This document shows, piece after piece, positions 1 to 64,000 of a stretch of DNA of 64,000 nt. The first letter of the stretch is position 1. Each line of letters begins with the position of its first letter. The DNA comes from Ruminococcaceae bacterium UBA3753 (GTDB lineage: Bacteria > Bacillota > Clostridia > Oscillospirales > Acutalibacteraceae). The notes under the pieces are model-generated. The model did not search any database. It worked only from the letters and a program-made list of their open reading frames with translations, and had not been told where the DNA came from. The DNA lies in assembly GCA_002372375.1 (NCBI GenBank), contig DFGJ01000021.1, forward strand, positions 62,394 through 126,393, written 5' to 3'. The position numbers were made by a program, and so were the translations under genes.

Positions 1-26
1 TGATGTATACTAAACCATATAAAAGT

Positions 27-758
27 TCATTTTTTTGATTCCAAAAACTTTTTGACTCCGTCAAAAATGCAATTCGCTATACTGTTTTGATATTCATCTG
101 TTAATAATTTCTTTGACTCCTCCTCGTTAGATATAAATCCGCACTCCACTATGATGGCAGGTATATCGGCGTTTCTTAGTAGATATATATCTTTACCTGC
201 TTTTTTGTTTTCTCTTTTATTGTCTGGCTGTAAAGTTTTTATGACAGATTCTTTTACAAAATTTGCTAAAAGTTCGCTGTCTTTATTATTTGAAGAATAA
301 AAAATCTGCGTTCCGCTGTACTGGGGGTCAGTGAACTTATTTTGATGTATACTTATTAGAATATTTTTGTCACTAGAATTTGCTATATTGGCCCTGCTTT
401 TTAGGTCGTCTACTTTTTTTTGTCGTAAAGTTTTATTTTTTCCAGGTTCTTGTTTATATATCGCTTTATCTTCAGTCCTTGTCATAACCGCACTGAACCC
501 TGATTTAATAAAAATATCATTTAGCTTTTTAGCTATTTTTAGATTAATGTCTTTCTCTAATATGTCATTGACTCCTACTGCTCCGCCATCTTCTCCACCG
601 TGACCTGCATCTATTACTATAGTTTTATCGCCGAATTTTGCGACAGCATTTACTCTTTTTGACATATTGCAAAAAAAGTTACCTAGTAGCAATGCTGTAA
701 GAAAAAAAAGAACTAAAGTTACAAAATAGAATAAATTATTTTTTAGTTTATTTATCAC
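27..758 (-). CDS. cwlD: N-acetylmuramoyl-L-alanine amidase, germination-specific CwlD-like
   Basis: 243-aa ORF with a single N-terminal hydrophobic anchor. It has the Amidase_3 motifs VIDAGHGGEDGGAVG, ISIHQN and ECGFISN, and is colinear with Bacillus CwlD as I remember it. It ends on TGA. Confidence 0.8.
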   Translation of the reverse strand: MINKLKNNLFYFVTLVLFFLTALLLGNFFCNMSKRVNAVAKFGDKTIVIDAGHGGEDGGAVGVNDILEKDINLKIAKKLNDIFIKSGFSAVMTRTEDKAIYKQEPGKNKTLRQKKVDDLKSRANIANSSDKNILISIHQNKFTDPQYSGTQIFYSSNNKDSELLANFVKESVIKTLQPDNKRENKKAGKDIYLLRNADIPAIIVECGFISNEEESKKLLTDEYQNSIANCIFDGVKKFLESKK

Positions 759-1464
759 AATAAAGTTTTCCGTAATCTAGTTGTATAGTTTTATATGTAT
801 GCCTTAAAATTAAAATATAGTACAAAAATAGCATTACAAAAATTAAGTGCTTAGGTTTAGATAATCGTGTAAAAAATATACAGTCTTTATGAATTATACT
901 CAAATTAATTAATTCCAATTTTACTTAAGTTCTTAAGAAATTTCGGGAATAGTTGAAGATGATTTCTAAAGTAAAATTTGTAAGGTAAAATACAAGTATA
1001 TTTATATAATATACTTAATGAAAAAAGTAAGCTATTATGTGATAGCATAGGATTTTTGAAAGAATACTTAAGAAATTGCAAATTTAAAAAGCTGTATTTG
1101 TAGTTTTAGGTCAACTGGTGTTAGTTTTAAAAAGCATGATTAGAGATTGAGGATAGGTGGAAAATTAATTAAAAATAAGAAAATTTGAAATTTTTCCGAA
1201 ATAGGACTAAAAAAATAATGGAGCAAGGCTCGTACAGATAAGAAAATTAAATATTTAAAACCATGGAAAAACGTCGTCTTACTTGGAAGTTTACTTGCAA
1301 GTATAATGGGATTAAACTTTTTTACAATTTACTTCATGCAATCATATAGAGACTTATTTTTATTGCATTAAAAATTACTAATATATAGAATCTTGATTAG
1401 TAAAAACGCTTTGTAGTATAAAATATTGAGCTGCAAGTTTTTAGGTGGAGTAACATCGTTAAGT

Positions 1465-1818
1465 ATGTTTGAGTATAAAAAGATAAGGGCACAAGAGGAT
1501 CTGAAAGCTCAAATTGCCCTTGCTATAAGGAAAGTTAAAGATTCACGGGTCAGAGACTCACTTGTAAATATAGTAAAATTAGAGTGCTCAAATAAGCTCG
1601 CTTCGATTAGGGTCTATGTAAGTACTGTACTAGGACTGAAAATAGCCAGAAGAGCAGCTGAGGGTCTAAATTCAGCAACTGGATTTATAAAGCAAGAGCT
1701 AGGCAAAAATTTGAGAATGAGATATATGCCCTGTATTACCTTTATAGCTACAGATTCAATTGAGTATGGAACAAAAATTTCTAAAAAAATAAGTGAACTT
1801 AGAGGAGTTACCGGCTGA
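1465..1818 (+). CDS. rbfA: ribosome-binding factor A
   Basis: The track ORF is 1426..1818. I prefer the ATG at 1465 (MFEYKKIRAQEDLKAQIA...), which gives a typical ~117-aa RbfA. The ASIRVYVS core is present. Its TGA stop abuts the ATG of the next gene. Confidence 0.8.
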   Translation: MFEYKKIRAQEDLKAQIALAIRKVKDSRVRDSLVNIVKLECSNKLASIRVYVSTVLGLKIARRAAEGLNSATGFIKQELGKNLRMRYMPCITFIATDSIEYGTKISKKISELRGVTG

Positions 1819-5007: not shown

Positions 5008-5694
5008 TTAATTCTTTTTAAATTTTCTACGCAAAATAGTGACAGCTTTCTTTTCTATGCGGGAAACATACGACCTGGATATGTCTAGCTTCTTTGCGAT
5101 CTCACGTTGAGTGTACACTTTTTCACCATTTAGTCCGTATCTTAAATTTATTATTGTCTGCTCTCTTGGTGTTAAATTTTCTTTTATATAGCCGTTTAAT
5201 TTCTCTGCTTTAATTTTTATATCTATGTTGTCTGTAATGTCTTCATTAGTAGACATTATGTCCATTAGAATTAAAGTATTGCCATTTTTATCAGTATCTA
5301 TAGGCTCATTTATAGAAACATCTTTTTCGCTTTTCTTGCTATTTCTGAAAAACATCAAAACTTCATTTTCTATGCATCGTGCTGCATAACTCGATAGTCT
5401 TATTCCCTTCTCTAAGTTAAAAGTGTCAATAGCTTTTATTAACCCTATTGTGCCAACCGATACAATGTCATCTTGGCTACTGTATGTAAAATAGTATTTT
5501 TTTGCTATGTGTGCTACCAATCTTAAATTGTGTTCTATAAGTTTATGACGCGCTGCGCTGTCGCCCGATTTCATTCTAATTAAGCAATTTTTTTCATCTT
5601 TAGCCGAAAGTGGCTGCGGAAACGCATTCGGACCATTTACATGCAATATGAAAAAAATCACATCTTTTAGTATAGAGCATAAAAAGCTTATCAT
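5008..5694 (-). CDS. sigK: RNA polymerase sporulation sigma factor SigK (pro-sigma-K), uninterrupted
   Basis: Hydrophobic pro-sequence followed by NAFPQPLS, then HNLRLVAHIAKKY, GTIGLIKAIDTF, ARCIENE and a region 4 HTH (QREIAKKLDISRSYVSRIEKKA). An AGGTG RBS lies 4 nt upstream of the ATG. Confidence 0.85.
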   Translation of the reverse strand: MISFLCSILKDVIFFILHVNGPNAFPQPLSAKDEKNCLIRMKSGDSAARHKLIEHNLRLVAHIAKKYYFTYSSQDDIVSVGTIGLIKAIDTFNLEKGIRLSSYAARCIENEVLMFFRNSKKSEKDVSINEPIDTDKNGNTLILMDIMSTNEDITDNIDIKIKAEKLNGYIKENLTPREQTIINLRYGLNGEKVYTQREIAKKLDISRSYVSRIEKKAVTILRRKFKKN

Positions 5695-6185
5695 ATAGCA
5701 CCTGTCGTCCTTTTTTTACATTGTATGAGAGTTAGAGGAACATGTTACATTTTAACTTTTTATGCAATTCGGATATTTACCTTAAGCATCAACAAATATT
5801 TAACACAAATATGTAAAATATTTATCAAAAACTTTCTGTTGATTACAAGTATTGGCAAACGTTTTTCGTCCTGCAAGACATTTATGTTGTTGCAATGTTA
5901 AAAAATATACAAATAGTTTTATTTGTGTGATGAAAATATGACACAGCATTCAACCAAGTAGGATTAGAGCTGGAAAGAAGTTTCAGAAACAAAAATTAAA
6001 AAATAGTCAAAACTTAAAAAATGGCTGTAAATTATTTAAGTTAGCGCAACATAATTTGTTAAACAAGGATAAAACTTTTTGCAGTTATCTAGATTTTTGG
6101 CACTCCAATGTGATGGTAACAAAAATCAAATTCGCACAAAGAAGCACGAAACTGATCTAAAGAATTATCAAATACAATTCTAACA

Positions 6186-6626
6186 CTAGGGCTCCGTATC
6201 AAAAGATACATTCCGCACTAAAAGGCTTGGCTGCTCTAAACGTTTATTATTTAAATCAACATGGTCTATTTTTTCTCCAGCACTACCTTCACAAAGACTG
6301 TCTCCTAGCCTTTCGTCTTTAATTTTAAAACCATTTTTCGCACTAGTCAACGTAATAGTAGTTGGAAGAATATCATTTAAAACTTTAAGTGATTTGTCAC
6401 AAAAATCTAAGAAATTCATATCTTCTTCTGAATATCACAATCTAATTAGTTCCATCTCGGAATCTGGTGAAACTTCGATCTTATTATCGTTTATATACGT
6501 AATTTTATTGAGAATTGATTCTAGCAACACTTTCAGAGTGATAGTATTAGTGTTCAATGCAATTTGCCGAAAAAACTGCTCGGGAGTTAGAGCTTTACAC
6601 TGATCTATCTTGAAAACGGAAATGTT
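6186..6626 (-). pseudogene. gene relic: open frame bounded upstream by TAG, with an internal in-frame TGA and no credible start
   Basis: The 77-aa track ORF (6186..6419) continues upstream in the same frame across a TGA at 6435..6437. That part reads ...KALTPEQFFRQIALNTNTITLKVLLESILNKITYINDNKIEVSPDSEMELIRL-stop-YSEEDMNFLDF... A TAG lies at 6627..6629 and there is no ATG near the 5' end. Confidence 0.3.
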
Positions 6627-6953
6627 CTAATTAACAATCACACCGTATATCAAGGTGATGGCTCCAAATATCTACATTAAATCCCTGGACTTTGGGACTT
6701 CTTGCCTTCCTTGATTATTTACATTTTGTTACTTAGGACTTTGCTCTTGCACCTCACTGTCCTTCCTAGTTTCAAGGAGGAAAGAATACTTTAGATATAT
6801 CGTTTTATTTGTTTAGCAAATTTAAAAGTCTTGCAGTTTACTTGAAAAATCAGGAAAAACACCTTGCATTTTTGTTGCGAAGAAAGTTATAAAGCTTGCT
6901 TGTACTCATAAAAAATATGATAGATCGGATCTTTTGTTTTTAAATTGAGTTAG

Positions 6954-6979
6954 AAAAAAGAGCGGACGAGTGCCCGCCC
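6954..6979 (-). terminator. rho-independent terminator
   Basis: On the minus strand: GGGCGGGC-ACUC-GUCCGCUC, an 8-bp stem with two G-U pairs and a 4-nt loop, followed by UUUUUU. It begins 9 nt after the TAG stop at 6988..6990. Confidence 0.7.
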
Positions 6980-6987
6980 TTTTACAA

Positions 6988-7191
6988 CTACTTTTTCTTT
7001 TTTTTAATAAATTGTGCCTCCTTGAGACCTATCTGGAGTCCTTGCTCCAGACCAAGTCGATAAAATTTATTCTTAGCTCTGTGATAAATACCGTCAGTCA
7101 TCATAGCTTCAGACTCATTAAGTCCCCCTGCTATCTCATCCCCTGAATCATCATCATAAACTTTCCAGGTGCCATCCCCCATTTGCACCAT
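6988..7191 (-). CDS. small acidic/basic protein (67 codons); possibly the downstream part of a frameshifted gene
   Basis: An open frame that ends immediately before a good terminator. Its own ATG sits inside a G5A4 run with poor RBS spacing. See the finding on 6988-7247. Confidence 0.45.
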   Translation of the reverse strand: MVQMGDGTWKVYDDDSGDEIAGGLNESEAMMTDGIYHRAKNKFYRLGLEQGLQIGLKEAQFIKKKKK

Positions 7192-7247
7192 TTTCCCCCG
7201 ACAGCATTACTTAAATCAGCTTCTGATATGCTATTAGTTAACACCAT
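7131..7247 (-). CDS. 38-codon ORF with a double-glycine-type leader (MVLTNSISEADLSNAVGG / KWCKWGMAPGKFMMMIQGMR)
   Basis: A GAGGTG RBS lies 7 nt upstream of the ATG at 7247. The leader-like ...EADLSNAVGG resembles the LSxxELxxIxGG class of leaders. The ORF overlaps the 67-codon ORF in the -1 frame. Confidence 0.3.
   Translation of the reverse strand: MVLTNSISEADLSNAVGGKWCKWGMAPGKFMMMIQGMR
7191..7197 (-). promoter_or_regulatory. candidate -1 ribosomal frameshift heptamer G_GGA_AAA
   Basis: In the leader frame the codons are GGG GGA AAA TGG, which fits the X_XXY_YYZ pattern. A -1 slip lands exactly on the ATG GTG CAA... frame of ORF 6988..7191. A GGUGC/GCACC hairpin follows, but only 1 nt downstream, which is shorter than usual. 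Confidence 0.25.
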
Positions 7248-7601
7248 AACCACACACCTCAAAAAATAATTTTCTTCAGTCTTAGACTTAAGATGTTTAA
7301 ATTGCAAATTATTTCAAGTAAAATGTTAATACTTTTATTTTTAAAAAACAAAATCATAAAAAGTCCCATACTTTAACTATTTAGCTAGCAAATAATACTT
7401 ATATGTCATTAACAATCATCCTGTATCTTTATTAAAATAAAAATTGTAGTTTTTAAAATAAATACTAAATAAATATGTCTAACTTGATATTTTAAGGCCT
7501 TACAAAAAATTAAAGACAGAAATTTTCATCATACTGTTGTACAAATTTTAAATTAGAAATTAGCACAACTTTTATTTGTGAATTGGCGAATTTTTAATTT
7601 T

Positions 7602-7982: not shown

Positions 7983-7988
7983 ATCCTT

Positions 7989-8675: not shown

Positions 8676-8944
8676 ATGTATTATTTCTTTAAAATCGATT
8701 TTTTATTCTCTATTTGCCTTGCTTTGTTTAGGTATCTATTCCATATATTCCTAACTGTCTTCTCGATTATCAATGTTTATTGTGAATCTAAATATTTAAA
8801 GGGTGTGATTAAAATGAGAACCGATAATTATCTTTTTTCTTTCCTTTATCTAAGAAGCAACAGTAGTTTTGTGAGACTAAAAACATAAAAGTGAGTTATA
8901 ATATGCCAGATTAAATTTGTTTTTGTGTTAAAAAGGACTTTGTT

Positions 8945-11002: not shown

Positions 11003-11049
11003 ATTTGTTTTTTATTTTCAGTTCACTTATAGGTTAGTGATTAGCGTTT

Positions 11050-12010
11050 TTGTTGACTATTTTTTTGCTAAAAGTGGAGGTTGTCCTCTTCTGGGTGTGG
11101 TTGTATCCAAACATAGAGGTTGTTTCTTGTAATGATGTGGCGTTAATGCTCTCTTTTTTGGAATTTTTCAGTTTCTTCGGTTATCTTGAGGAGTTGACAG
11201 TTTTTGTCAAAGACGGACACTGTTGTCTGCGCGGTGTTGGAGCTATTTTTTGAAATGATGCGACATTAATATTCTTGCTTGGAGAATTTTTTGGTTTCCT
11301 CAGTTGTTTTTTTGTGTTGAGGTTTTTTTGTTAAAGACGGACACTGTTGTTTGCGCGGTGCTGGTTGGAGCTGTTTTTTGAAATGATGTAGCATAAATGT
11401 TCGCGCCTGGAAAATTTTTTGGTTTCCCCAGTTGCTTTTTTGTGTTGAGGTTTTTTTGTTAGGTGTGTGCGCTGCTGGCTGCGGGCTTTTGGTTGCAGCC
11501 AAAAGTTAAAGCTATTTTTTTATAATAGTGTAGCATTGATGTTCTCTTTTTCTGAATTTTTCAGTTTCTTCGGTTATCTTGAGGCGTTGATGTTTTTTGT
11601 TAAAGATGGACACTGTTGTCTGCGCGGTGTTGGAGCTCTTTTTTGAAATGATGTGACATTAATATTCTCGCTTGGAGAATTTTTTGGTTTCCCCAGTTGT
11701 TTTTTGGCGTTGATGTTTTTTGTTAAGGATGGACACTGTTGTCTGCGCGGTGTTGGAGCTGTTTTTTGAAATGATGTGACATTAATATTCTCTCTTGGAA
11801 ATTTTTTTGGTTTCCTCAGTTGTTTTTTTGTGTTGAGGTTTTTTTGTTAGGTGTGTGCGCTACTGGCTGCGGGCTGTTGGTTGCGTCTGGCATAGAAGTC
11901 GTTTCTTGTAATAATGTGGCGTTAGCGCTCTCGTTTGAGGAATTGTTCAGTTTTTTCGGTTGCTTTGAATTGATGTCAATGTTTTTTCTATTGTTCTCAA
12001 GATATAAGAA
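11050..12010 (+). repeat. tandem array of ~123-141 bp monomers in a ~390 bp three-unit higher-order repeat (about 7.5 monomers)
   Basis: Unit boundaries fall after 11120, 11244, 11372, 11513, 11637, 11760 and 11900. Units 11121-11513 and 11514-11900 are colinear and highly similar, unit for unit. Confidence 0.9.
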
Positions 12011-12365
12011 TTCGATATATTGAGTTATATTTGCACTGAAAGGCTTTTGCGGGTTTGAATCTCGACTTAGATGCTCCGTATGCAGTCTAGTAAGCTAAGC
12101 TGTGAGTTTAGGCGAGGTTGTGCCTTGGGTTGTGCGCTAGTTCTTCGTTTATTTGTTTTCTTTTTATATAAGTTTAAGTATACTTTGTTTAGTGGTTTTT
12201 TTTTGAAATTCTACGAAACTCCGAAGATTGTTTTCTGTATAAGTGAGTTTTTTGTGTGTTTAAATTGTTGAACGAGCAGGGTTGTGGTAGCTATCTCCGT
12301 TATTTAAAGTTAAAAGTTCAGTTTAGTGGTCAAATTTCAGATTCACATAGTTTTAGGGTTGATGG

Positions 12366-24950: not shown

Positions 24951-25420
24951 AAGTACGGCAACTTAGAAATTTTAAAGGGGCAATTAGAATCGGTGCTATT
25001 TTACAAAGAAGCCGCATCATTATCTATCAGCTATTTGCACGCTCGATCCTTTCTCTTTCCGCCTGGGGAGGCATTATATAATTTATTTACAAACTTTGAG
25101 CGTCTAAAGTGCGGCAACTTAGAAAATTCAAAAAGACAATTAGAAGTCGGCGCTGCCTTACAAAGAAGCCACATCATTATCTATCAGCTATTTGCACGCT
25201 CAATCCTTTCTCTTTCCGCTTGAGAAGGCCCTATATAATTTATTTACAAACTTTGAGTATCTGAAGTGCGGCAACTTAGAAATTTTAAAGGGGCAATTAG
25301 AATCGGTGCTACCTTACAAGGAAGCCACATCATTGTCTATTAGCTATTTGCACGCTCGATCCTTTCTCTTTCCGCTTGAGAAGGCCTTATATAGTTTATC
25401 TGCAAACTTTGAGCATCTCC
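24951..25420 (-). repeat. tandem array, ~156 bp x 3; the innermost unit contains the last ~26 codons and stop of tsaB
   Basis: Unit starts (aagtRcggcaacttagaaa) are at 24951, 25107 and 25264. The string tatttgcacgctcRatcctttctctttccgc recurs at about 25033, 25190 and 25344, and the tsaB stop is at 25340. Confidence 0.9.
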
Positions 25421-26086: not shown

Positions 26087-26669
26087 CGCCAGTATTGTAG
26101 TAGTATATCCAATTAATTAATTTTTTTAACACACGCAAATATGACCACCACGTCATTTTACTGCTAGTTTGCATGAAATCGAAATCTTTTTTTAAAATAG
26201 AGAAATGTGTACAAGTCAATACCAAAGTATTATAACTAAAAAGTGAAAACATAACGAAAATTAGTGATCTTCAATTTTTGTGTTTATATTTACTGTGTAC
26301 TATTTTTAGAATTAATACTTGCTTATGTGCAATGAACTTATGCATGTCAAGAAGTTTTTATCAAAGTCTTGTTTATCAGTTTTTTATTTCCTGGGGTGAG
26401 TCAAAGGAACGGAGTCTACTTGTAGACATTTTGTAGAGGAGGAAAATATGTAATTTTGTAAAATGAACTGTAAAATTATAAAAACAAAGGTGTATAGCAA
26501 TAAAAAACTCGTATTTAAAAAGAAAACTAAGCTGTAACTCTTTGTACAGACTTAGTAACAACTTCTAGAACAGCACATTCACACCACATGCTATGACGTT
26601 CTTGGAGCGAGAGTTCGTTGGAGATAGGTTCACAATCTGAATTCCCTCCACTGTATATATAGCGGATAG

Positions 26670-27983: not shown

Positions 27984-28130
27984 ACATATAGAAGTGCAAA
28001 ATGTACTTTTAGTTTCGCTCACCAGGTGCAGTCATCTGCTCTTGGTTTGTTCCTATTTTAGACGCCTTTTCTGTGTATATTTTTCCCGTCAAGACTTAAA
28101 CGGCATAATTATTTCGAATAATACCTAATT

Positions 28131-29734: not shown

Positions 29735-30320
29735 TAGAAGAAGCAAAGGTTGTGTTCTTTAAAAGGATTTGTTAAATAGGTTTTAGCCTTGACTTGTTAT
29801 AGCAGTAAAGAAACCGATTTATATTTTGGCGCGAATAATGATGTTTTCAATTAGATTCCTTCAGCTTTAATATCTAGTACTTATGAATTCAATACAAATG
29901 TACATCTAACGAATAACAAGGGGGGCGGACCGACTAAAAGAAGCAAAAGTTGTACTCCTTAAAAAGGTTTGTTAAATAGGTTTTAGCCTTGACTTGTTAT
30001 AGCAGTACAAGATCCGATTTATTTTTGGCGCGAATAATGGTGTTTTCAATTAGATTCCTTCAGCTTTAATATCTAGTATTTATGAATTCAATACAAATGT
30101 ACATCTAACGAATGACAATTGGCAGATCGACTAAAAGAAGCAAAAGTTGTACTCCTTAAAAGGGTTTGTTAAATAGGTTTTAGCTTTGACTTGTTATAGC
30201 AGCAAAAAAGCTGATTTGTGTTTTGGTGTAAATAGTGACGGGCTTTTGTTTGGATTTCTTCCGCTTTAATATCTAGTATTTAAATATACGTCTAACGAAT
30301 AACGAGGGGACGGATCGACT
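29735..30320 (+). repeat. tandem array, ~197 bp x 3, upstream of the ABC transporter gene
   Basis: The unit-start motif ctaaaagaagcaaaagttgt is at 29934 and 30131, with a diverged form at 29735. The internal block ggttttagccttgacttgttatagcag recurs in each unit. Confidence 0.9.
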
Positions 30321-38338: not shown

Positions 38339-40420
38339 ATGAAAAGACAGGTATCTTTGGAGAAAACAAGAAATATAGGTATTATGGCTCACATAGATGC
38401 CGGAAAAACTACGACGACAGAAAGAATTTTATTTTATACAGGAGTTAACCACAAAATAGGTGAAACCCATGATGGCGCTGCCACCATGGATTGGATGGAG
38501 CAAGAGCAAGAAAGGGGTATAACTATAACTTCAGCGGCGACAACGTGCTTTTGGAAGCAGCATAGAATTAATATCATAGATACACCAGGTCACGTGGATT
38601 TTACCGTTGAGGTTGAAAGGTCTTTGAGAGTTCTGGATGGGTCTGTTACAGTCCTGTGTGCTAAAGGGGGAGTAGAGCCACAGTCGGAGACTGTCTGGCG
38701 TCAAGCTGACCGCTATAAAGTGCCTAGAATGGTCTATGTGAACAAAATGGATGCTGTGGGAGCTGATTTCTATAATGTTATCCAAATGATGAAGGACCGT
38801 CTACGCTGCAACGCTGTTCCGATTCAATTGCCAATAGGTTCGGATGAAACTTTTAGAGGGATCATAGATCTTGTTGAGATGAAGGCATATATATATAATG
38901 ACGATCTAGGTAAGGACATAACTGTTGAGGAGATACCGCAAGAGCTTGAGGACCGATCGGCTGAATATAGGCGAGAACTTTTAGAGCATGTTGCCGAAAT
39001 GGACGATGCTTTGTTCGAGAAATACTTGAATGATGAAGAAATAACACAGGATGAAATAAAGTCAGCTATTAGAAAAGCGACACTTGCCAATAAGATGGTG
39101 CCTGTAACTTGCGGGAGTTCTTACAAAAATAAAGGTGTTCAAAAGCTTTTAGATGCAATAGTCGATTATATGCCTGCACCAACAGATGTTCCGGCTATAA
39201 AAGGGATAAACCCTGAAACTAACGAGGAATGCGAGCGTCACTCTTCGGACTCTGAGCCGTTTTCAGCTCTGGCTTTTAAAATTGCTACTGACCCTTACGT
39301 AGGTAAGCTATGCTTCTTCAGGGTGTACTCTGGATCTATCAGTGCTGGTACTACTGTTTATAACTCAACTAAAAACAGTAAAGAAAGACTTGGCAGAATT
39401 CTTCAAATGCACGCAAATCATCGGCAAGACATAGATACTGTTTACGCTGGTGACATTGCTGCTGCAGTTGGTTTAAAGAATACTACAACTGGCGATACTC
39501 TTTGTGTGGAATCCAATCCAGTAATTTTAGAGTCTATGGAATTTCCTGAGCCTGTTATTAGGGTGGCCATTGAGCCAAAAACAAAGGCTGGCCAAGAAAA
39601 GATGGGCTTGGCACTTGCCAAGCTTGCCGAGGAGGATCCTACGTTTAAGGCTTACACGGATAAAGAGACCGGGCAGACGATAATTGCTGGAATGGGTGAG
39701 TTGCACCTTGAAATTATCGTGGACAGATTACTGAGAGAATTTAAGGTTGAGGCTAATATTGGTGACCCTCAGGTTGCGTACAAAGAGACCATAAGAGAGA
39801 ATGCTGATGTTGAAAGTAAATATGTCCGTCAGTCTGGCGGTAGAGGGCAGTACGGTCATGTGAAAATAAAAATTTCGCCTAACCCGGCCAAAGGCTATGA
39901 GTTCGTTAATTCTATTGTTGGTGGTGCTATTCCTAAAGAATACATTCCTGCTGTGGATGAAGGTATAAAAAGTGCTATGCAGGCTGGTATTTTAGCAGGA
40001 TATCCGGTTGTGGATGTTAAGGTTGAGTTATACTATGGTTCTTTCCACGAAGTCGACTCATCTGAAATGGCGTTTAAAATAGCGGGATCAATGGCTTTTA
40101 AAGATGCGATGAGCAAAGCTGATCCCGTATTGTTGGAGCCCATAATGAAAGTTAGTGTTACCGTTCCGGAAGAATATATGGGGGATGTTATAGGTGACCT
40201 TAATTCTCGCCGTGGCATGATTCAGGGAATGGAAGCCCTTGCTGGTGCACAAAGAATAAATGCAAATGTTCCTCTGTCTGAAATGTTCGGATATGCTACT
40301 GACATGCGTTCTAAAACTCAAGGTAGGGGACAATACACAATGGAGCCAAGTCATTATGCTGAGGTACCGAAATCTGTTTCGGAAGGAATTATATCCTCAA
40401 GAGTTAAGCCGGCGGGATAG
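38339..40420 (+). CDS. fusA: elongation factor G
   Basis: [38 protein letters not shown] and NKMD, with full-length colinearity to EF-G and the end ...SRVKPAG. Confidence 0.97.
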
Positions 40421-41350
40421 GTTGGCCATACCGCTGGCATGCGTTCTAAAATTTAAGATAAGGCGGAAATACGCAACGTAACCGCGTCACTATGTTAGGG
40501 TACTAAATTCTGTTTTGAAAGAATTGTGTCCTTTAAGAGTGGAGTTGACGGGAAATCGGCCGCCAGTTTGTGCTTTCTTTCCAAGACTTAAGATTTGAAG
40601 TATTATGCTATGAAACTGGGTCAATGTGCTGGGGTACCGAGATCTGTTTCGAGAGTAATTTTGTCCTCAAGAGTTAAATCGACGGTAGCGGTTGTCGGCA
40701 TGTGTACTTCCAGTGTTCGTTCTAAAATTTAGGACTGGGGACAATGCGCAATTTAATTGAGTTACTGTGTTGAGGTACTGGGATATGTTTCGGAAGGAAT
40801 TATATTCTCGAGGGTTAAGCCGGCGGAATAGGTTGCCATACCGCTGGCATGCGTTCTAAAATTTAAGATAGGGCGGAAATACGCAACGTAACCGCGTCAC
40901 TATGTTAGGGTACTGAATTTTGTTTTGAGCGAATTGTGTCCTTAAGAGTGGAGTTGACGGGAAATCGGCCGTCAGTTTGTGCTTTCTTTCCAAGACTTAG
41001 GATTTGGAGTATTATGCTATGGAACTGGGTCACTGTGCTGGAGTACCAAAGTCTGTTTCGAGGGGGATTGTGTCCTCAAGAGTTAAGTTGTTGGTAGCAG
41101 TTGCCGACTTGTGTGCCTTCAGCATGCGTTCCAAAACTTAGGACTAGTACGCAATTTAGTTGAGTTACTATGCTGGGGTACCGAAATCTGTTTCGGAATG
41201 AATTATATCTTCAAGAGTTAAATCGACGGTAGCGGTTGTCGGCATGTGTACTTCCAGTGTTCGTTCTAAAATTTAGGACTGGGGACAATACGCAATTTAA
41301 TTGAGTTACTGTGTTGAGGTACTGGGATCTGTTTCGGAAGGAATAACTTG
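40304..41350 (+). repeat. tandem array of ~132-143 bp units (about 8) seeded by the last ~117 nt of fusA, with higher-order re-duplication
   Basis: Unit starts (atgcgttctaaaa and diverged forms) are at 40304, 40439, 40571, 40713, 40848, 40980, 41123 and 41257. Units 2 and 5 are near identical, as are units 4 and 8. Confidence 0.92.
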
Positions 41351-41536
41351 CTAATTTGTATGTGCCTCCAACAGGCGTTTTTGTTAGTCACGGTTATGTT
41401 AATAGTGCACGTTTTTAATTTGAATACAATGTTTTATTTTTGCTCTTTTCGTAGAGCGCTGGGAGATTTATAAATATTTGGGAATTCTTTGCATCATTGT
41501 TTTGCTTTAGTTTTTGTTTTGCTGTAAGGTGTTTTT

Positions 41537-50330: not shown

Positions 50331-51555
50331 AAGTCCCTAACACTTCACTAAAACATTATTTTTAGATAAACTATAAAATTTCAAAAAACACCCGGAAAAA
50401 TCTCAATGGAAACTGAAAAATTTGCACTACAAAAGGGAACTTACGCAGCCCCACAAGAAACGGGATACTACTCCGCAAGAACATCCCAACCTGTATTTTC
50501 AGACATTACCATCCAAAAAGGAAGAAAAAATCGTCAAAAAACGATCGTGATTTACTTTATAAATGTGCAAAAGATCACGCTGAAAACCTCGCCACGAAAG
50601 TCACCCAAAAATTCCGACAGCGTTCAGCACAAAACCTAACCACAGGTACTCCCCTGAAATAATACTACAAATCTAAAAATTAAGTAAACTTCAGAATCCT
50701 AAAAAACTCCAATCTTACTCGCAACTGCTAAATGTCATCACGAACGCTATTTCTTTAAAGGCTACCCCATGCCTAGTAACAAAACTGAAGCAAGCACAAA
50801 ACACGCACGAAATCTAGGTATACTACTAGAAAAAACACACAACCGTTAAAGCCGCCAAAAAACTATTCACGCTAGCTTTAAAAGAGGTAAAAACGCTAAA
50901 TTACTCGACGTATAACATAAAAATGGTCAAAGGTAATAATGAAAATTTTGGCTTTAAAATAGACGGAACAGAAAACTTAGATGCCGCCCGTATTTCGTGC
51001 AAAAGTAACTCACAAGACACGAATTATCTTTTTCAAAAAAGTTTAGATGATATTACACCTCTGAGCGCCAGAAATCTTTATTCGGTTAGAATTACAGCGC
51101 TACCAGTTTTCCCAAAAAATACAATGCGCCAAAAAGCGGCAACCCAACAATTTTACAAGAAACGCTGTACCAAACCGAACAACCAACAAAAATCGCTATT
51201 CCACTGCTAAGAGCACAAAACTAAAAAACATCGAAATTTAATCCTAACAAATACGCCACAACATGAACGTGCAAACAAACAGAACAACCAATTCACCCTC
51301 AGCTAAACGCTTAATGCTGCTCAGTTCCCTGCCTGACATACTTCACGCCGCTGAACCGAAATGCGCCAATTTATCTACATACCCATGTGTGACTTCTGCA
51401 TGGTACCACAGATATAAGGTGTATGTCAACCAAATAAAGAAGTTTTTGATTAATGCATAAAGGTCAAGCTTTATGGAACGTATTCAGTTTTGCTTGAACT
51501 TGTGTAGTATTTAAAATATAATACATATGTTCGGGAAATGCTTGAGGAATACTCC

Positions 51556-57292: not shown

Positions 57293-57509
57293 GAAACCCT
57301 CCATATTTGATTTGAATGTAATATACATTATAATATATAGATTTTATGATGTATATATTTTACTAGTTATTTTTTAAAAATCTATTTTTTACATAAATTT
57401 TCGTTTCAAATTACACTAAATTTCGTTATATAAAACACTTCCTTTTTTTGATTTTTATATTAAAATTGAATCTGAGAGGTTCATGCCTGAACGAATAGGA
57501 GGACGAGAC

Positions 57510-58796
57510 GTGCTAGACTTGAAAAAACTTAGAAATGATCCGGATACTATTATCCATTCGCTAAACAGAAGAGGACACGATTATTCTTCTGCCGTTAATG
57601 GTTTGTTGAGAATCGATAAAAAGAGGCGCGAGTTGATGGCAAAAATGGAAAGCCTCCGTTTTGAACAAAATGAAGCGAATAAAAGGATTGCCAAATTAGT
57701 CAAAGACAAAGAAGACACAACGGAGCTGTTTGCAAAGTTTAGATCGATTTCATCCCTTGCATCTGATTATAAGTCGCAAATTTCTGATCTTGAAAAAGAA
57801 CAAGAAGAAATTTTGTTGAGTTTGCCTAATACGCCTCACTGCGATGTGCCCACTGGCCTTTCAGATAGGGAGAATAAGGAAGTGAGACGAGTTGATGCTC
57901 CAAAAATAAACAATTTCAGAAATAAACCACATTGGCAGATTGGTGCGGATTTGGACATCCTGGATTTCTCGCGGGCGAGCAAAATAACAGGGTCTAGGTT
58001 TGTTGTTTATAAGGGTTTGGGGGCTAAACTGGAGCGCGCTATAATTAGTTTTTTCCTAGATGTTCACACTAAAAATGGTTTCAAAGAGATTTTGCCGCCG
58101 TATATTGTAAATTCTAAAAGCATGACTGGCACGGGTCAGCTCCCTAAATTCAGTGAAGATACTTTTAAATTAGAGCGTTCTGATTATTATCTAATACCTA
58201 CGGCCGAGGTACCTGTAACTAATTTGCATTCTGGTGAGATATTGAAAGAGTCAGAACTGCCGGTAAAGTACTGTTCGTACTCTGCATGCTTCAGGGCAGA
58301 GGCCGGTTCTGCGGGAAAAGATACAAAAGGCATTATACGACAGCACCAGTTTAATAAAGTTGAGCTTGTAAAATTTTCACTACCAGAAAATTCTAATGAT
58401 GAATTAGAGTCGTTGCTAGAAGAAGCTGAATTAATTTTAAAAATTTTAGAGCTCCCGTACAGAGTGGTGTGCTTATGCACGGGGGATTTAGGTTTTAGTT
58501 CCGCCAAGACCTATGACATTGAGGTTTGGATGCCCTCGTATGATAGGTACGTTGAAATATCGTCTTGTTCAAATTTTCTGGATTTTCAAAGTAGGCGTGC
58601 AAATATAAAGTACAAAAATAGTAGAACCGGTACGAATGAGTTTGTGCATACTTTAAATGGATCAGGTCTCGCTGTCGGGAGAACTTTTGCCGCTATCTTA
58701 GAGAATTATCAAAATGAGGATGGTTCTGTGAGCATCCCCGAGGCACTGAGGGAGTATATGGGAGTAAACGAAATATCTGTCGATAACTCGTTCTAG
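57510..58796 (+). CDS. serS: seryl-tRNA synthetase
   Basis: The GTG at 57510 is preceded by AGGAGG (6 nt) and gives the canonical (M)[11 protein letters not shown]-terminus. Class II motifs [18 protein letters not shown] and ...[14 protein letters not shown] are present. Confidence 0.93.
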
Positions 58797-59280
58797 ATTC
58801 TTACTTGATATTTCTAAGGTGAAGCGTTCATATTTCCATTTTGCTTTTTTAGCAAGCCGCTCTTTTGTTGATAATAACTAAGTTGTTGCAGTTACTTTTC
58901 TGGCAGGAAAGTGTTTGTCGCTACTTTAGAAAATCATAGTAACGAGGGTAATTTTGTGAGCATACACGAAACGCTACAGGAGTATAGTATGTGGGATCAA
59001 ATGGGGTATTTGTCGATGGCTCACTCTAGGTTTTTCGTTTGTTATTTTTCAGAAAAAGTGATTCATACCTTTCTTATATTTTTAGGTAATGCGCTCTTTT
59101 ATTGATGATAATGGAATTACGGTTTCCTCGTCTAAGGTGGTTGTGCTGAATTTTTTGACCGCAGTGAATGTTTTTGTCTAGTGCGTCGCATACTTGTTAT
59201 CGGTTTTAGGTAATTTCTGGTTCTATTTTGTGACTATGTAGTACAATTTACTTCTACCGTTTTGGAGTTTTCATTTTTAA
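58685..59280 (+). repeat. tandem ~226 bp units: the serS 3' end plus downstream spacer, then one clear and one decayed ghost copy
   Basis: gccgctatcttagagaattatcaaaatgaggatggttctgtgagcatcc (58689-) matches gtcgctactttagaaaatcatagtaacgagggtaattttgtgagcatac (58917-). The spacer blocks ...gccgctcttttgttgataata and ...gcgctcttttattgatgataat also correspond. Confidence 0.8.
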
Positions 59281-59289
59281 AATTTCTCC

Positions 59290-60156
59290 TTGTTTTTATT
59301 GAATATGCTTATGGATAAATCCGATATGCAGTTTAATTTGAATCATGTGACGTTTTCCTACAGATTGGGAAGTAGGAAAATTTTAGATGATGTTTCTTTA
59401 AAAATAAAGAAGGGTGAATTCGTTTTTTTGTTAGGAAAAAATGGATCCGGAAAATCTACATTTTTAAAGCATCTTAATGCCATGCTTATACCTACTTCAG
59501 GAGAAATTTATGTTGATGGAAAGGATACAAAACTTGAAAAAAATATTTATAAAATTCGCAAAACAGTAGGGATGATTTTGCAAAATCCTGAAAGTCAAAT
59601 TGTAAACAGTATCGTTGAAGAGGATGTCGCTTTTGGATTAGAAAACATTGCAGAGGATCCTAAAATTATTCAGAAAAGAGTAGACAGCGCTTTACAGGCT
59701 ATTGGTATGCAAACTTATAAAAAGCGGATGATTAATGAGCTATCTGGTGGACAAAGACAGAAGATCGTTATTGCCGGCGTTTTGGCTATGCAACCTGATT
59801 GTATACTCTTAGACGAACCTACTTCTATGCTTGATACTAAAAGCAGGTCAGAAATTTTGCGTATAATATATGATTTAAATAAAAAATTGGGAATCACCGT
59901 CGTTTGGATTACACATAACCTAGAGGAAGTGCAATGCGGGCACAGAATCTTGTTAATGAAGGAAGGTAAAATAGCACTTGATACAACCCCTTCTGAACTT
60001 TTTTATAACGACGAAATACTTAGCAAGTTCGACTTAAAAAGAACAGAATTGGTAGAATTTGTGTGTAATTTAAAAAAGAAAGGTCTCAAAATAAAAGATA
60101 CAACTAATAAAGAAGCGGTAATCGATTTTATATTTAATCAGCTGAGAAAAAACTAA
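59290..60156 (+). CDS. ecfA: energy-coupling factor (ECF) transporter ATPase EcfA
   Basis: GKNGSGKST, QNPESQ, LSGGQRQKIVIAGVLAM, LLDEPTSMLD and ITHNLEE. The start is uncertain, and the ATG at 59326 (MQFNLNHVTFSY) is plausible. No ecfA2 or ecfT follows. Confidence 0.85.
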   Translation: MFLLNMLMDKSDMQFNLNHVTFSYRLGSRKILDDVSLKIKKGEFVFLLGKNGSGKSTFLKHLNAMLIPTSGEIYVDGKDTKLEKNIYKIRKTVGMILQNPESQIVNSIVEEDVAFGLENIAEDPKIIQKRVDSALQAIGMQTYKKRMINELSGGQRQKIVIAGVLAMQPDCILLDEPTSMLDTKSRSEILRIIYDLNKKLGITVVWITHNLEEVQCGHRILLMKEGKIALDTTPSELFYNDEILSKFDLKRTELVEFVCNLKKKGLKIKDTTNKEAVIDFIFNQLRKN

Positions 60157-60204
60157 AGTTATTTTAAAATTAAAATTTGCAAAATTTTTATTACTATGCG
60201 AATT

Positions 60205-60900
60205 ACAAAGTTGTAGACACAAGACATAAGTCCGCACAAAATAAATCAAGCAAATCGAAATATAGTATAAGGGCACACAATTTTTATTTTTGGTGTCCGT
60301 ATAGTTAGCTCCCCCCAAAAAAATTTTGAAAAGTATCGCTGATTAAAACCGCTTTTGACTTTTTAATTGACCAAATTGAGGGTACTTCTTCATTTCTGAT
60401 GTTTTAATCTACAAATCGAATTTTTGAATTATCAAATTATAAATACAAGACATAAGTTCACACAAAATAAGTCAAACAAATCAAAACATAGTACAAAAGT
60501 GCTCTATTTTTATTTTCAGTATCTGTATAGTCAGCCCCCCAAAAAAAATTTTTGAAAAGTATCGCTGTTTCTGACCATTAAAATCGCTTTTGACTTTTTA
60601 ATTGACCAAATTAAGGGTACTTCTTCATTTCCGATGTTTTAATCTACAAATCGAATTTTTGAATTACCAAATTATAAACACAAGACATAAGTCCGCACAA
60701 AATAAATCAAGCAAATCAAAATATAGTATAAAGGCACACCATTTTTATTTTTAGTGCTTGTATAGTTAGCTCCTGAATTTTTGTATAAGTACCACTATTT
60801 TGGCTTATGAAGATAACTTTTAAATTGACCAAAGTTTGGGCACTTTTTTAATTTTTTATATTTTAATCTACATATCTAATTTTTGGATAATTAAACTACA
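60205..60900. repeat. tandem array, ~226-235 bp x 3, between ecfA and the DUF1653 gene
   Basis: acaagacataagt recurs at 60219, 60445 and 60680. The long colinear block ...gcttttgactttttaattgaccaaattRagggtacttcttcatttc appears in each unit. Confidence 0.9.
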
Positions 60901-61822
60901 AACATAGTATATAAATTTGCAGATAGTAAACTAAAAAGATTAGGGGCATACTAAATAAAGAGAGACTACTAATTAACTGCAAAAATGTTTAATAAGCCTG
61001 CTAAACGTTATAATCGCAAGACAGCCCATAAACCCGACTATTCACCACAAATATACAAATATAGCAGATATAATTCTAACGAATACAACATGTATCAGGC
61101 TGCATATTTATCTATTTTTGGGACGAAGCAGTCGTACTTTTGTTAAAATTTTATTAACCAAATATGTTTCTATAACGCACTTTCAAATGAACAATACTGA
61201 TAAAAATCGGTTTGCAGCTTGTCACAAACGTTTTACTAATGTAAAGTACACAAAAGGCCGGTCGATAAAAATACAATGTACTATAAGCAATTTTTAATAA
61301 TGAGCCAACATTTCTCTACACAAATTCTACATATATATTCAAAAGCCATTTGTCTTAAAGCTAAACTTTTTGAACGGCTTTCGTCATTCGACTTAGTTTT
61401 GCTAAATAGCAAAAAACCACAACTTAGCTTTCAACACGATAAAATCTGCAGAAAACGAGAATTCACACGAACCAAATGCGAAAAGTGTCCCTGTGCACAA
61501 ATTCTGAAAACCGTTAGGAGAACCAACACTTCCCGCGAGTGCTATTAGGCACAGAAAGTAACGATTCCACAGCCACTCTTAAACATCAAGATGCAAAATC
61601 AAAACAGTGCAAAACACTTTTCAGAAGGATTTTTAATTAAACATCACGAATTAAATCCGTGTTCCAACCGAAACTGAGTAAAAACATGAGGAAGACGATT
61701 ACCACTCTCTCACCGTAACCAATTGGCAAAATCAGCTTAAATCAAACTCAAGAATCAGCTTTAACTAGGCGAAGGGACTTACACAAACAATACTATACAG
61801 CCATAATTAATAAAAAAGAGTG

Positions 61823-62044
61823 TCAAACTTTGCTTTCTATGTTTTGCAGCTCAAACCTGTATTTTTGTCCATTTTTATTAACTTCATCTAAAAACATATC
61901 GTAAGGGCGACACCAAAGCCTATTATCTCCGTACAAAGCCCTATACACTATCATTTTCTCACAAGTCTCGCTGTGGTAAGCAATATCCACTGTTAGATAC
62001 AAATTGCCTTTGTAATGCTTGTAAATTCTATTAAGTTCTATCAT
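61823..62044 (-). CDS. DUF1653 domain protein
   Basis: YKHYKGNLY...HSETCEKMIVYRALYGDNRLWCRPYDMF is the DUF1653 pattern. The ATG at 62044 has a GGGAG RBS. The track ORF extends to 62146. Confidence 0.7.
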   Translation of the reverse strand: MIELNRIYKHYKGNLYLTVDIAYHSETCEKMIVYRALYGDNRLWCRPYDMFLDEVNKNGQKYRFELQNIESKV

Positions 62045-62653
62045 AAAAGCTCTCCCTGAATTAAAAACTAGTGTTACGATTCTAGTAAGGTATTTGCGGC
62101 GAATTACACCACCTAACAGAACGCCACCTTCCTTTCCACTTCCCACACATTCATTTTAACACAGTCTAACTAAAAGAGCCAACGTAATTTAGAATTTGGG
62201 TTAGCCAGAATTGAATATTTAAATATAAAAATTTTTGAAATGTGCTTTTCTATAATTTCAATGTAGTTTTATTGGATTTATTTTTCTTTGGTTTTTACAT
62301 GTATTTTTTAATTAACTAAAAGTTAAGAAAATAACGCCATATTTGTAGATAAATGTCACTTTACAGATTTGTGCCACAAAAAAACTTGCTAGAAATTAAA
62401 AATCACTAAAAGTAATAATATTCAAGCCGAGCTTGATAATGAAGATTTGTTTTTCTTTTATTTTTCACATCGACATTTTGATTGGCTATAAAATTCCTAG
62501 TTTTCTCCTTAATTTCCTGTATTTCTGAAATTTACTTGGCAAGAACTTTTTCCTATCTGAAAAATATTCCCACTAAAAAGTAAAAGCAAGTAGTTAAGCG
62601 CAAATTGTAACGCCAATCGGCGCTGATAGGGTACATAATTTCTAAGTTATAAC

Positions 62654-63868
62654 TCAAAGTTTAGATCTCATTTTTTCAATTGTTTCGTAAAGGTTGCCCT
62701 TCAGGTGCGTTTTGTCTAAGTACGGTAACAAATTTACTCCATATTTTTTTGCTACAGCCAAAAGCAATCTTTTTTTTGCTCCTTCTGATTTTACTTTGTT
62801 ATCAGCTAAAGTATCAAAAAAACTAAGTTGTTCCATGTATTTTTCAGACAAGTTATATAGCCCAACTCCCAGCAGTCTTACAGGACCTCTTTTTATTTTC
62901 AGCAACATTTTTTTTGCTTCAACATAAATTTTCAAATAATCGTTACTTGATGGAATATTTTTTGAGCGTGTTATGCTTTTCATATCTGCGTACGTTACCT
63001 TAAGAATAACTCCGTTGCCATAGAGACCTAGTCTTTTTGCTCTTTTTTCAACGCAAATTGAAAGCAAAAATAATACATCCTTAAGAAAAGTAACATTATC
63101 CACATCCTGCTGGAAAGTTATTTCTCTGCTGATCGATTTTGCATCTTTAGGTTCATGTGGAATAACTTTTCTTTCGTCTATACCTGACGATAAATTCACA
63201 ATAAATCTACCACTTTTTCCGAGTATATCGATAACTTTCTCACTGTTTTTTCTTACATCACGCACAGTTTTTATTCCATATTTTTTTAATTTTTCAGCTG
63301 TCATTTTTCCAACAGAATAAAGAGTGCGTACATCGCGGTCTATAATCAAATTAACAAAATCTTTTTCCGATGTTATCTCGAAATAACCATCAGGTTTCTT
63401 TTCTTCGCTTGCAATTTTAGCTGCTGACTTCGAATACGCCAATCCCACAGAGCAACTTAAGTTCAGCTCCTGCTTAATTCTTTTTTTTATTTCGAAAGCG
63501 ATTTTGCGTGCTTCATTAAAATCTTTGAAATTATTGGTGATATCCAAAAAAGCCTCGTCTAAGGCAATAGATTCCAAACAATCAGTATATGTACACCAAA
63601 TACTATGCAGTTTATTCGATATTTCTTTGTATTTTTCATAATTAGGGTGCATGTAAATGCCACTTGGACATAACTGGTAGGCCTTTTTTATATTCATTGC
63701 AGAGTGAACGCCGTATTTTCTGGCCTCGTAGCTACAAGTTGAAACAACTCCCCTTTCGCCAGGCAACGCGCCAATTATAAGAGGTTTGCCAGACAAACTC
63801 GGGTTATCCATAACTTCAACGGAGGCGAAAAAAGCATCCATATCTACATGTAGTATTATTCGTTGCAT
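62654..63868 (-). CDS. dinB: DNA polymerase IV (Y-family)
   Basis: ILHVDMDAFFASVE, SLDEAFLD, and the SCSVGLAYSKSAAKIAS motifs of DinB. Confidence 0.9.
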   Translation of the reverse strand: MQRIILHVDMDAFFASVEVMDNPSLSGKPLIIGALPGERGVVSTCSYEARKYGVHSAMNIKKAYQLCPSGIYMHPNYEKYKEISNKLHSIWCTYTDCLESIALDEAFLDITNNFKDFNEARKIAFEIKKRIKQELNLSCSVGLAYSKSAAKIASEEKKPDGYFEITSEKDFVNLIIDRDVRTLYSVGKMTAEKLKKYGIKTVRDVRKNSEKVIDILGKSGRFIVNLSSGIDERKVIPHEPKDAKSISREITFQQDVDNVTFLKDVLFLLSICVEKRAKRLGLYGNGVILKVTYADMKSITRSKNIPSSNDYLKIYVEAKKMLLKIKRGPVRLLGVGLYNLSEKYMEQLSFFDTLADNKVKSEGAKKRLLLAVAKKYGVNLLPYLDKTHLKGNLYETIEKMRSKL

Positions 63869-64000
63869 AAAAAAAACTATAAAAAATAAATTTACCTAGA
63901 AATAATCAATTGATTTATGTCTAATTTATAAAAATCTTCACACAAATAGTTGAAAAACTTGATATTATATATTTACTTGATTAAAAATTATTATTTTCCA

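Follow-up and report, generated by a model that had tools for sequence, protein, structure and literature searches.

We analyzed a 64,000-nucleotide stretch of the genome of Ruminococcaceae bacterium UBA3753 (GCA_002372375.1, contig DFGJ01000021.1, forward-strand positions 62,394 to 126,393), referred to here as the window, and found that genes fill much less of it than is usual in bacteria. Across the window, 45 non-overlapping open reading frames (ORFs) of at least 80 aa occupy 40,016 of the 64,000 bases, giving 62.5% coding and 37.5% non-coding DNA, the latter amounting to ~24 kb. Some of the long spacers hold tandem arrays that look like products of local duplication, and three of these arrays are built on the 3′ end of an adjoining gene (fusA, tsaB, or serS). 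We consider neutral erosion and padding in a probably host-dependent lineage to be the likeliest origin of this architecture, with a probability of roughly 60%.

Bacterial genomes are normally ~90% coding, with deletions outpacing insertions and selection acting efficiently. When we applied a uniform greedy ORF measure, the window scored 0.634, compared with a mean of 0.896 in 43 unrelated bacterial recR loci. The lowest of these controls, at 0.746, is a Gracilibacteria locus that uses a different genetic code. Gene calls made on the same scaffold by a public pipeline gave ~62% coding for window positions 2366-22980 and ~59% for the 10 kb past the window end. The window contains 0.70 coding sequences (CDS) per kb and has a GC content of 34.3%. 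The low coding density is therefore real, and the original prediction, which was made from the letters alone and held that about one third of the window lacks a credible gene, is borne out against controls that average ~90% coding. The features that define the loose architecture are as follows.

1..64000, no strand: loose architecture, 62.5% coding, with 18 strand switches among 47 ORFs and canonical operons apart
11003..12365, plus strand: ybaB/recR spacer, 1363 bp
26087..26669, minus strand: tsaE/tsaB spacer, 583 bp, without internal repeat and without Pfam match
31918-32194: spacer between a transporter permease gene and its ATPase gene, 277 bp
51275..51372, minus strand: signal recognition particle (SRP) RNA gene, found with Rfam, alone inside the spacer upstream of rlmN

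In 37 control loci, the median distance between ybaB and recR is ~40 bp. The spacer 3′ of fusA measures 1116 bp, and the one 5′ of rlmN measures 1207 bp. The lengths that had been claimed for these five gaps were exact, although the gap upstream of rlmN is not empty, as the SRP RNA gene within it had been overlooked. Taken as a whole, the observation that one third of the window is non-coding and that its operons are pulled apart is largely confirmed. The SRP RNA gene immediately precedes dnaX in Bacillus subtilis. Here, the two are ~42 kb apart, which would be a further break in synteny.

We then asked what the gaps contain. Each of the stop codons is in use at the ends of confident genes (TAA 20, TGA 15, TAG 10). 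Reading TGA or TAG as sense raises the coverage by stop-to-stop frames of at least 100 aa to 0.73-0.74 from 0.67, mostly through overlapping frames. Recoding thus leaves the gaps open, and an alternative genetic code (4, 25, or similar) was rejected. Among gap-dominant stop-to-stop frames of at least 40 aa (8,809 residues, from all gaps apart from the two largest arrays, at ybaB and fusA, and the frames from ~60,600 to the window end), none matched Pfam at E ≤ 0.01. A tblastn search with the window's own proteins returned no relics beyond gene tails and one fragment of a Nudix hydrolase gene. Rfam, searched at the gathering score and at E ≤ 0.1, returned the SRP RNA and one sub-threshold match resembling an L20 leader.

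These searches do not support two further claims of the original prediction. The ATPase relic proposed for 31918-32194 is not significant. The proposed decay of accessory genes is not substantiated, as no Pfam match turned up among the gap frames; beyond the arrays, a single relic could be demonstrated, the inverted Nudix tail copy described below. Spacer GC spans 0.24-0.42, with many anonymous spacers at 0.24-0.28 and the highest values in the fusA tail array (0.42) and the ybaB array (0.37). GC may be a rough marker of the age of spacer DNA under AT-biased decay.

Tandem arrays and copied gene tails

We searched for arrays using self-BLAST, Tandem Repeats Finder, and a shuffle-controlled test for internal repeats. 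Of 24 spacers of at least 400 bp, five contain a strong tandem repeat and a sixth contains a moderate one; 16 of the 24 show no internal repeat signal, older degenerate periodicity included. The six arrays total ~3.6 kb, or ~15% of the non-coding DNA.

11123..11987, plus strand: ybaB/recR array, 7 units of ~123 nt, 69-92% identical, very T/G-rich
24951..25418, minus strand: tsaB tail array, 3 units of 156 nt, ~90% identical
29735..30319, no strand: array between sigG and the ABC-transporter genes, 3 units of 200 nt, 83-91% identical
40299..41344, plus strand: fusA tail array, 8 tandem units of ~135 nt
58686..59111, plus strand: serS tail array, 2 units of ~228 and 198 nt, 72% identical
60200..60930, plus strand: array after an ABC ATPase gene, ~3.2 units of 231 nt, 84-88% identical

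The ybaB/recR array makes up 865 bp of its spacer and has no detectable similarity to ybaB or recR. The array at 29735-30319 lies in a divergent spacer and overlaps no gene, and the one at 60200-60930 begins 44 nt past the stop codon of the ABC ATPase gene (59290-60156). Seven spacers had been predicted to contain arrays. Six arrays are clear and non-coding. One further repeat lies inside a gene (16587-16928, minus strand), where ~3.9 in-frame units of 87 nt (29 aa) are 77-82% identical. The ORF that hosts it (15645-17003, 452 aa) has no assigned function.

Self-BLAST detected no match between loci except the Nudix tail copy, and nhmmer profiles built from five of the six arrays (all but fusA) found no copies in the window away from their own locus. 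We therefore rejected a dispersed family of repetitive extragenic palindromes (REP), miniature inverted-repeat transposable elements (MITE), or insertion sequence remnants, as no shared element links the loci by either method. The arrays appear to be local duplications whose units are unrelated from locus to locus, in agreement with what had been proposed. Eight array units that we folded were no more stable than their shuffles (z from -1.1 to +1.7).

To look for copies of genes, we compared the last 150 nt of each gene with its downstream spacer and the first 150 nt with its upstream spacer, using shuffles as the null. Tail matches stood out for tsaB (z = 47), fusA (z = 40), and serS (z = 17) and for no other gene; no gene in the window has a copy of its head in the upstream spacer. 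In the fusA array, unit 1 consists of the functional last 122 nt of fusA plus 13 nt and is followed by seven more units placed back-to-back. Units 2-8 are 70-83% identical to unit 1, and tblastn recovers the C-terminus of elongation factor G (EF-G) in several of them, so that ~910 bp downstream of fusA is made of tail copies. Units 2 and 5 are 96% identical and units 4 and 8 are 98% identical, while the other pairs are 64-85% identical. Such close pairs beside more diverged units indicate several rounds of duplication or gene conversion, the latest of them quite recent.

The fusA tail holds a perfect hairpin, CCGAAA-TCTG-TTTCGG. Directly past the last, partial unit, a consensus scan picked out one further element.

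41362..41378, plus strand: terminator-like hairpin followed by a T-run

The fusA array thus probably sits in the fusA 3′ untranslated region (UTR), between the stop codon and a putative terminator. In the tsaB array, the unit at 25263-25418 comprises the last 79 nt of tsaB and 77 nt downstream; the first serS unit includes the last 111 nt of serS (57483-58796). Neither the other three arrays nor the remaining spacers resemble their flanking genes in DNA, protein, or profile comparisons.

Recognizable tail copies therefore amount to ~1.4 kb of the 24 kb of non-coding DNA (~6%). The original prediction that spacers are built from eroded same-strand gene-tail copies is not supported beyond three of the six arrays. 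Its companion claim, that arrays are enriched at the 3′ ends of genes, is suggestive at p ~0.1: there are three tails and no heads in the window, and five tails and one head when relatives are included.

The arrays also bear on the quality of the assembly. Wherever they overlap the window, an AUXO01 contig and the Logan assemblies of two further runs (SRR5322920 and SRR873605) match it at 100% identity; for the two runs, this overlap exceeds 30 kb and takes in many spacers. All Logan contig ends within the window fall inside arrays (11832, 30132, 40454, and 60688), and two separate runs break at the identical base, 60688. True repeats interrupt short-read graphs in just this way, and the arrays are where short-read assemblies of this organism come apart. 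In addition, array units differ among themselves by 2-35% and so are not assembly duplicates. Mis-assembly, which had been named among the findings that could overturn the observation, is rejected by the identical independent assemblies, by the diverged units, and by relatives that are likewise loose.

We also examined the base composition of the spacers, which had been described as T/G-rich on the strand of the adjacent gene. All five of the regions cited agree with that description: the T/G-rich regions 11050-12300 and 40420-41500 have G+T fractions of 0.695 and 0.597, and the A/C-rich regions 20900-21380, 24312-24950, and 50331-51480 have fractions of 0.443, 0.441, and 0.360. Read on the gene strand, 16 of 20 co-directional spacers lie above 0.5 and three lie below (pooled 0.57; sign test p ~0.004). 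Third codon positions are skewed in the same way, with G+T of 0.54 in plus-strand genes and 0.55 in minus-strand genes. The skew is thus a general mutation bias tied to the gene strand. As it equals the skew of third codon positions, it does not serve as evidence for tail copies, contrary to what had been argued. Averaged over codon positions, coding sequence has a G+T of only ~0.52, with A-rich first positions, and copied tails would therefore not be T-rich. Divergent spacers are almost unskewed (0.49/0.51, from a small and heterogeneous sample), which favors a link to transcription. The bias could be transcription-associated or inherited from a former leading-strand orientation.

Relatives, clade, and gene content

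We identified relatives as EF-G homologs with their contigs and graded them by identity to the EF-G of the window.

EF-G 86-87% identical (L090, and L089, which is GCA_017480265.1): compact rpoB-rpoC-rpsL-rpsG-fusA-tuf, gaps of ~90 bp, coverage 0.91-0.94
EF-G 90-94% identical (L043, L045/L046, the GCA_016648615.1 locus, and L088): coverage 0.61-0.70

In the 90-94% group, a gap of 0.4-3.1 kb separates rpsG from fusA, tuf does not follow fusA, and the neighboring genes differ from lineage to lineage. The GCA_016648615.1 locus is ~45% coding by its own gene calls. Comparison with the nearest relatives, which the original prediction had proposed as a check, shows them to be equally loose and the 86-87% group to be compact. 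Looseness is accordingly a feature of a sublineage and does not define the clade to which it belongs.

The dnaX-ybaB-recR cluster is kept in relatives, with a ybaB/recR spacer of 1363 bp in the window and of ~805 and ~190 bp in two relatives. Spacers cannot be aligned between relatives, save for ~165 nt adjoining fusA on its upstream side. A single copy of the fusA tail in one relative is 80% identical to that relative's own fusA tail and 61-74% identical to the window units. As the copy is nearer to the tail of its own genome, it points to independent recurrence or concerted evolution. Of the other relatives, one carries a copied recR tail and one a copied head of a Mur-ligase-family gene; in compact relatives, we found copies of neither kind. 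The 3.1-kb rpsG-fusA gap of L045 (EF-G 91%) contains an array of its own (7044-8764; 1.7 kb, period ~430 nt, 68-82% identical) that is unrelated to every array in the window.

Takahashi et al. (2023; PMC10579323) described a "small genome clade" within the Genome Taxonomy Database family "Acutalibacteraceae", composed of endosymbionts of termite protists and 23 gut metagenome-assembled genomes (MAGs), some from ruminants. Genomes of this clade span 0.86-1.4 Mb with 30-39% GC. An ATP/ADP translocase (TlcC) was gained in the common ancestor of the clade, whose members are read as energy parasites; three termite endosymbiont genomes contain 94-248 pseudogenes, and clade members lack replication and repair genes such as rnhA, recG, and polA (PMC10579323). 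Table S11 of that study lists GCA_002372375.1 itself (sheep, Oceania, 1.44 Mb, 34.5% GC) as well as GCA_017480265.1. The EF-G of the latter, at 87%, is the best named match to that of the window, a comparison of one protein only. The window lineage thus probably belongs to the small genome clade, judging from this identity and the table's metadata, and an eroding genome would therefore be expected here. The organism is uncultured, and the label of its scaffold, SHIW14-1_SAMN02144231, points to the sheep-rumen survey of Shi et al. (2014) in New Zealand. The idea that it might be Oscillospira guilliermondii, the giant bacterium of the rumen, found no support.

The window agrees with the clade in GC (34% against 30-39%), in its ruminant-gut source, and in its few CDS per kb: dividing the figures in Table 1 of PMC10579323 gives 0.66-0.80 for the termite endosymbionts, compared with 0.70 for the window. 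Its nearest relatives carry the ATP/ADP translocase, as the clade does. In the two closest (EF-G 94% and 90%), the translocase gene (TLC, PF03219) lies just upstream of rpsL, at 2621-4132 in L043 and at 6120-7715 in the GCA_016648615.1 locus; no TLC gene lies within the window. TLC homologs are very widespread in contigs of gut Clostridia, with 1053 proteins at E ≤ 1e-60. RsTa-C01, from the clade, likewise lacks a clean GC-skew pattern. On the other side, the fusA locus is tightly packed in at least one of the listed genomes, and the study reports pseudogenes but is silent, in text and supplement alike, on sporulation genes, synteny, the break-up of operons, coding density, and tandem repeats. 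The original prediction knew of no such genome in a spore-forming Firmicute; an eroding clade with pseudogenes was already published, while its architecture was not discussed there.

We assigned gene identities using NCBIfam, Pfam, and public gene calls. The window encodes cwlD, rbfA, nrnA, sigK, DUF4363/DUF421 genes, dnaX, ybaB, recR, a papain-like peptidase with a lectin-like domain, spoIIE, tuf, a GH3 hexosaminidase, tsaB, tsaE, a Nudix hydrolase, sigG, a fused substrate-binding protein and permease with its ABC ATPase, mreB, fusA, a DUF4340 protein, a PNP-family phosphorylase, a tyrosine phosphatase, prkC, a PP2C phosphatase, rlmN, ytfJ, fabG, asd, serS, a second ABC ATPase (59290-60156), DUF1653, and dinB. 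We found no tRNA genes in the window. Five of its genes concern sporulation.

27-758: cwlD, intact, just below the NCBIfam equivalog cut-off
5008-5694: sigK, intact, just below the NCBIfam equivalog cut-off
17860-20229: spoIIE, intact, well below the NCBIfam cut-off
28131-28913: sigG, intact, clears the NCBIfam cut-off
52097-52528: ytfJ, intact

Four further features deserve mention.

6948-7080, minus strand: L20 leader-like match (RF00558), 30.8 bits against a gathering score of 58.7, E = 0.045
13902-15236, minus strand: papain-family cysteine peptidase (Peptidase_C1) with a lectin-like domain
20340-20551, minus strand: Nudix tail copy, 212 nt, inverted, 78% identical to its source at 27799-28005 (plus strand)
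62654-63868, minus strand: dinB, Y-family DNA polymerase IV (IMS family), intact

The L20 leader-like match lies in the 1.9-kb spacer between sigK and DUF4363, with infC-rpmI-rplT not nearby. It is probably due to chance, though it could be the relic of a displaced operon leader. The Peptidase_C1 gene adjoins recR in relative L048 too; its product may act as a secreted effector or be one of the eukaryote-like proteins reported for the clade. The Nudix copy spans the gene's last ~185 nt and the next 22 nt and lies 7 kb away. Together, the tail and its copy form an inverted repeat around tuf, GH3, tsaB, and tsaE that could mediate or record an inversion. Beyond the window end, L093 encodes RecO and an RNase H; the retention of these two and of dinB bears on any hypothesis of repair deficiency.

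How the spacers may have arisen

In the reading that we favor, selection against useless DNA and against rearrangement would be weak, likely owing to a small effective population in a host-dependent lifestyle. Under weak selection, non-coding DNA would persist and grow, in part by local tandem duplication through slippage or unequal recombination, and an existing duplication would seed further rounds at its own locus. A duplication that runs from inside the 3′ end of an essential gene into the downstream DNA would leave the gene intact and add a silent tail fragment, and it could survive, as at fusA, tsaB, and serS. Duplications within genes would be purged by selection, and those across 5′ ends would probably be purged more often. 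The units would then decay under an AT-biased and gene-strand-asymmetric mutation pressure that would also shape third codon positions. The rest of the spacer DNA may be older duplication material or debris from pseudogenes and rearrangements, eroded past recognition, and spacers would have no sequence-specific function. Frequent inversions and translocations would split ancestral operons.

This reading draws on several observations. Low density extends across the sublineage, and anonymous spacers are not conserved between its members. Arrays stand at ybaB/recR and after fusA, where no ancestral gene stood, so that the non-coding DNA has been made partly by duplication.

Several points weigh against neutral erosion and padding. 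The excess of tail over head copies given above (3:0 in the window, 5:1 with relatives) falls short of statistical significance, and ~85% of the non-coding DNA shows neither repeat nor gene similarity; we infer its origin. A simple scan found no terminator-like sites after the tsaB and serS arrays. The assemblies of the three runs represent the same strain and break in the arrays, which leaves copy-number variation between strains unobservable. Clade membership rests on the identity of one protein and on metadata, and the protein P0127, a candidate for this genome's own ATP/ADP translocase, was rejected since it belongs to another, compact organism. Finally, intact cwlD, sigK, spoIIE, sigG, and ytfJ sit poorly with obligate intracellular life.

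A bolder version would have genome reduction reversed, with a genome of ~0.9 Mb growing to ~1.44 Mb almost wholly by gain of non-coding DNA, through recurrent tandem duplication that prefers the 3′ ends of essential genes, while a full sporulation program was kept. If 63% of 1.44 Mb is coding, the coding part is ~0.9 Mb, near the whole 0.88-Mb genome of a compact clade member, which raises the possibility of such re-inflation. We put this forward tentatively and think it rather unlikely. If true, the sublineage would depart from the general deletion bias of bacteria, as few others do, and the genome type of Ehrlichia ruminantium would have evolved twice, independently.

Alternatively, the spacers could be mainly dead ancestral genes left after host restriction, with tandem duplication playing a minor part. 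The 94-248 annotated pseudogenes of termite members of the clade (PMC10579323) are in keeping with this, as are the non-repetitive nature of ~85% of the spacer DNA, the one dispersed gene fragment (the Nudix tail), and the range of spacer GC from 0.24 to 0.42, which fits fragments of mixed ages drifting to AT. However, neither a Pfam match in the gap frames scanned nor a tblastn relic other than gene tails came to light. Large spacers also occur at ybaB/recR, at tsaE/tsaB, and after fusA, where no ancestral gene is expected; two of these three demonstrably consist of duplicated units, and a compact clade member has tight junctions at the homologous operon. We regard a plain graveyard of genes as unlikely.

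The tail arrays could also reflect a mutational hotspot, with the 3′ ends of genes being intrinsically prone to duplication; in a genome depleted of repair functions, stalled forks or R-loops at the ends of strongly transcribed genes might have this effect. All three tail arrays are on housekeeping genes, tail duplication of fusA recurs, apparently independently, in two lineages, and the fusA tail carries its perfect hairpin; clade members have, moreover, lost rnhA, recG, and polA (PMC10579323). Yet three of the arrays involve no gene tails, and tuf, dnaX, and other expressed genes have no tail copies. With so few cases, mutation bias and selection cannot be told apart, and we judge a hotspot of this kind to be improbable.

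Functional non-coding DNA, in the form of long UTRs, small RNA genes, or protein-binding arrays, such as 3′-UTR elements that regulate essential genes, is in our estimate about as improbable. The fusA array apparently lies between a stop codon and a terminator-like hairpin and so is probably transcribed, the skew seen on the gene strand in co-directional spacers fits with their being transcribed, and ~165 nt upstream of fusA are conserved in a relative. Against this, units are unrelated between loci, diverge freely to 64-85% identity, and fold no better than shuffles. Rfam yields no family besides the SRP RNA, and neither the sequence nor the length of spacers is conserved, as the unalignable ybaB/recR spacers of 1363, ~805, and ~190 bp illustrate.

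An artifact or unrecognized coding sequence (mis-assembly or a chimera, an alternative code, or many novel small genes) might be suspected in a short-read metagenome scaffold in which certain ORFs, among the accepted ones and in the gaps, belong to no known family, but it can be dismissed as scarcely credible given two other runs that are 100% identical over more than 30 kb, diverged units, use of all three stops, and several related species with the same architecture in other samples and from other assemblers.

The presence of such a genome has several implications. Well-documented exceptions with low coding density are few, and each informs on genome erosion. A Firmicute lineage that is 61-70% coding beside compact close relatives offers a natural comparison of the roles of population size, repair genes, or lifestyle. 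Here, non-coding DNA has in part been created by tandem duplication and not merely left behind by gene death, and the tail arrays of fusA, tsaB, and serS may be the footprint of a rule whereby only duplications that spare the intact essential gene survive. Gene callers and MAG quality tools that take coding density as a warning would misjudge the clade. Intact sporulation genes in proposed obligate intracellular energy parasites also bear on transmission.

Comparison with other loosely packed genomes

Sodalis glossinidius, Serratia symbiotica, and Mycobacterium leprae resemble the window in their low coding density (51-61%) and pervasive rearrangement. Unlike the window, where no pseudogene is recognizable, the non-coding DNA of these species consists largely of recognizable pseudogenes.

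The genome of Candidatus Endolissoclinum faulkneri is 57% coding and has very few recognizable pseudogenes (PMC3851785), and its intergenic DNA, like that of the window, is degraded past recognition, implying slow deletion. It differs in being an alphaproteobacterial endosymbiont of tunicates and in having gene inventories that are stable between strains, whereas the relatives of the window are heavily rearranged. To our knowledge, no gene-tail tandem arrays have been reported in this species.

The precedent offered in the original prediction, Ehrlichia ruminantium, proves apt, with matches in coding ratio, local repeats, and gene fragments. Its genome, the subject of Collins et al. (2005, PNAS) and Frutos et al. 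(2006, J Bacteriol), is ~63-64% coding owing to long intergenic regions, and tandem repeats expand and contract in its non-coding DNA (summarized in PMC10710844). The window is likewise 62.5% coding on account of long spacers, its arrays are locus-specific, and fragments of fusA, tsaB, and serS lie within them. Collins et al. are said to have described, in PNAS in 2005, truncated gene fragments associated with the repeats of E. ruminantium. Both genomes are small and host-dependent, the host dependence being probable here. There are differences as well. E. ruminantium belongs to the Rickettsiales, while the window comes from a member of the Clostridia with intact sporulation genes. The window arrays are mostly old, with units 64-92% identical save for two pairs at 96-98%, and occur in 6 of 24 spacers of at least 400 bp, making up ~15% of the non-coding DNA. 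In E. ruminantium, copy number varies between strains; in the window, two unit pairs that are still 96-98% identical suggest recent events. The window is thus a Firmicute case of an already known genome architecture, in a clade that has been published as reduced and probably parasitic.

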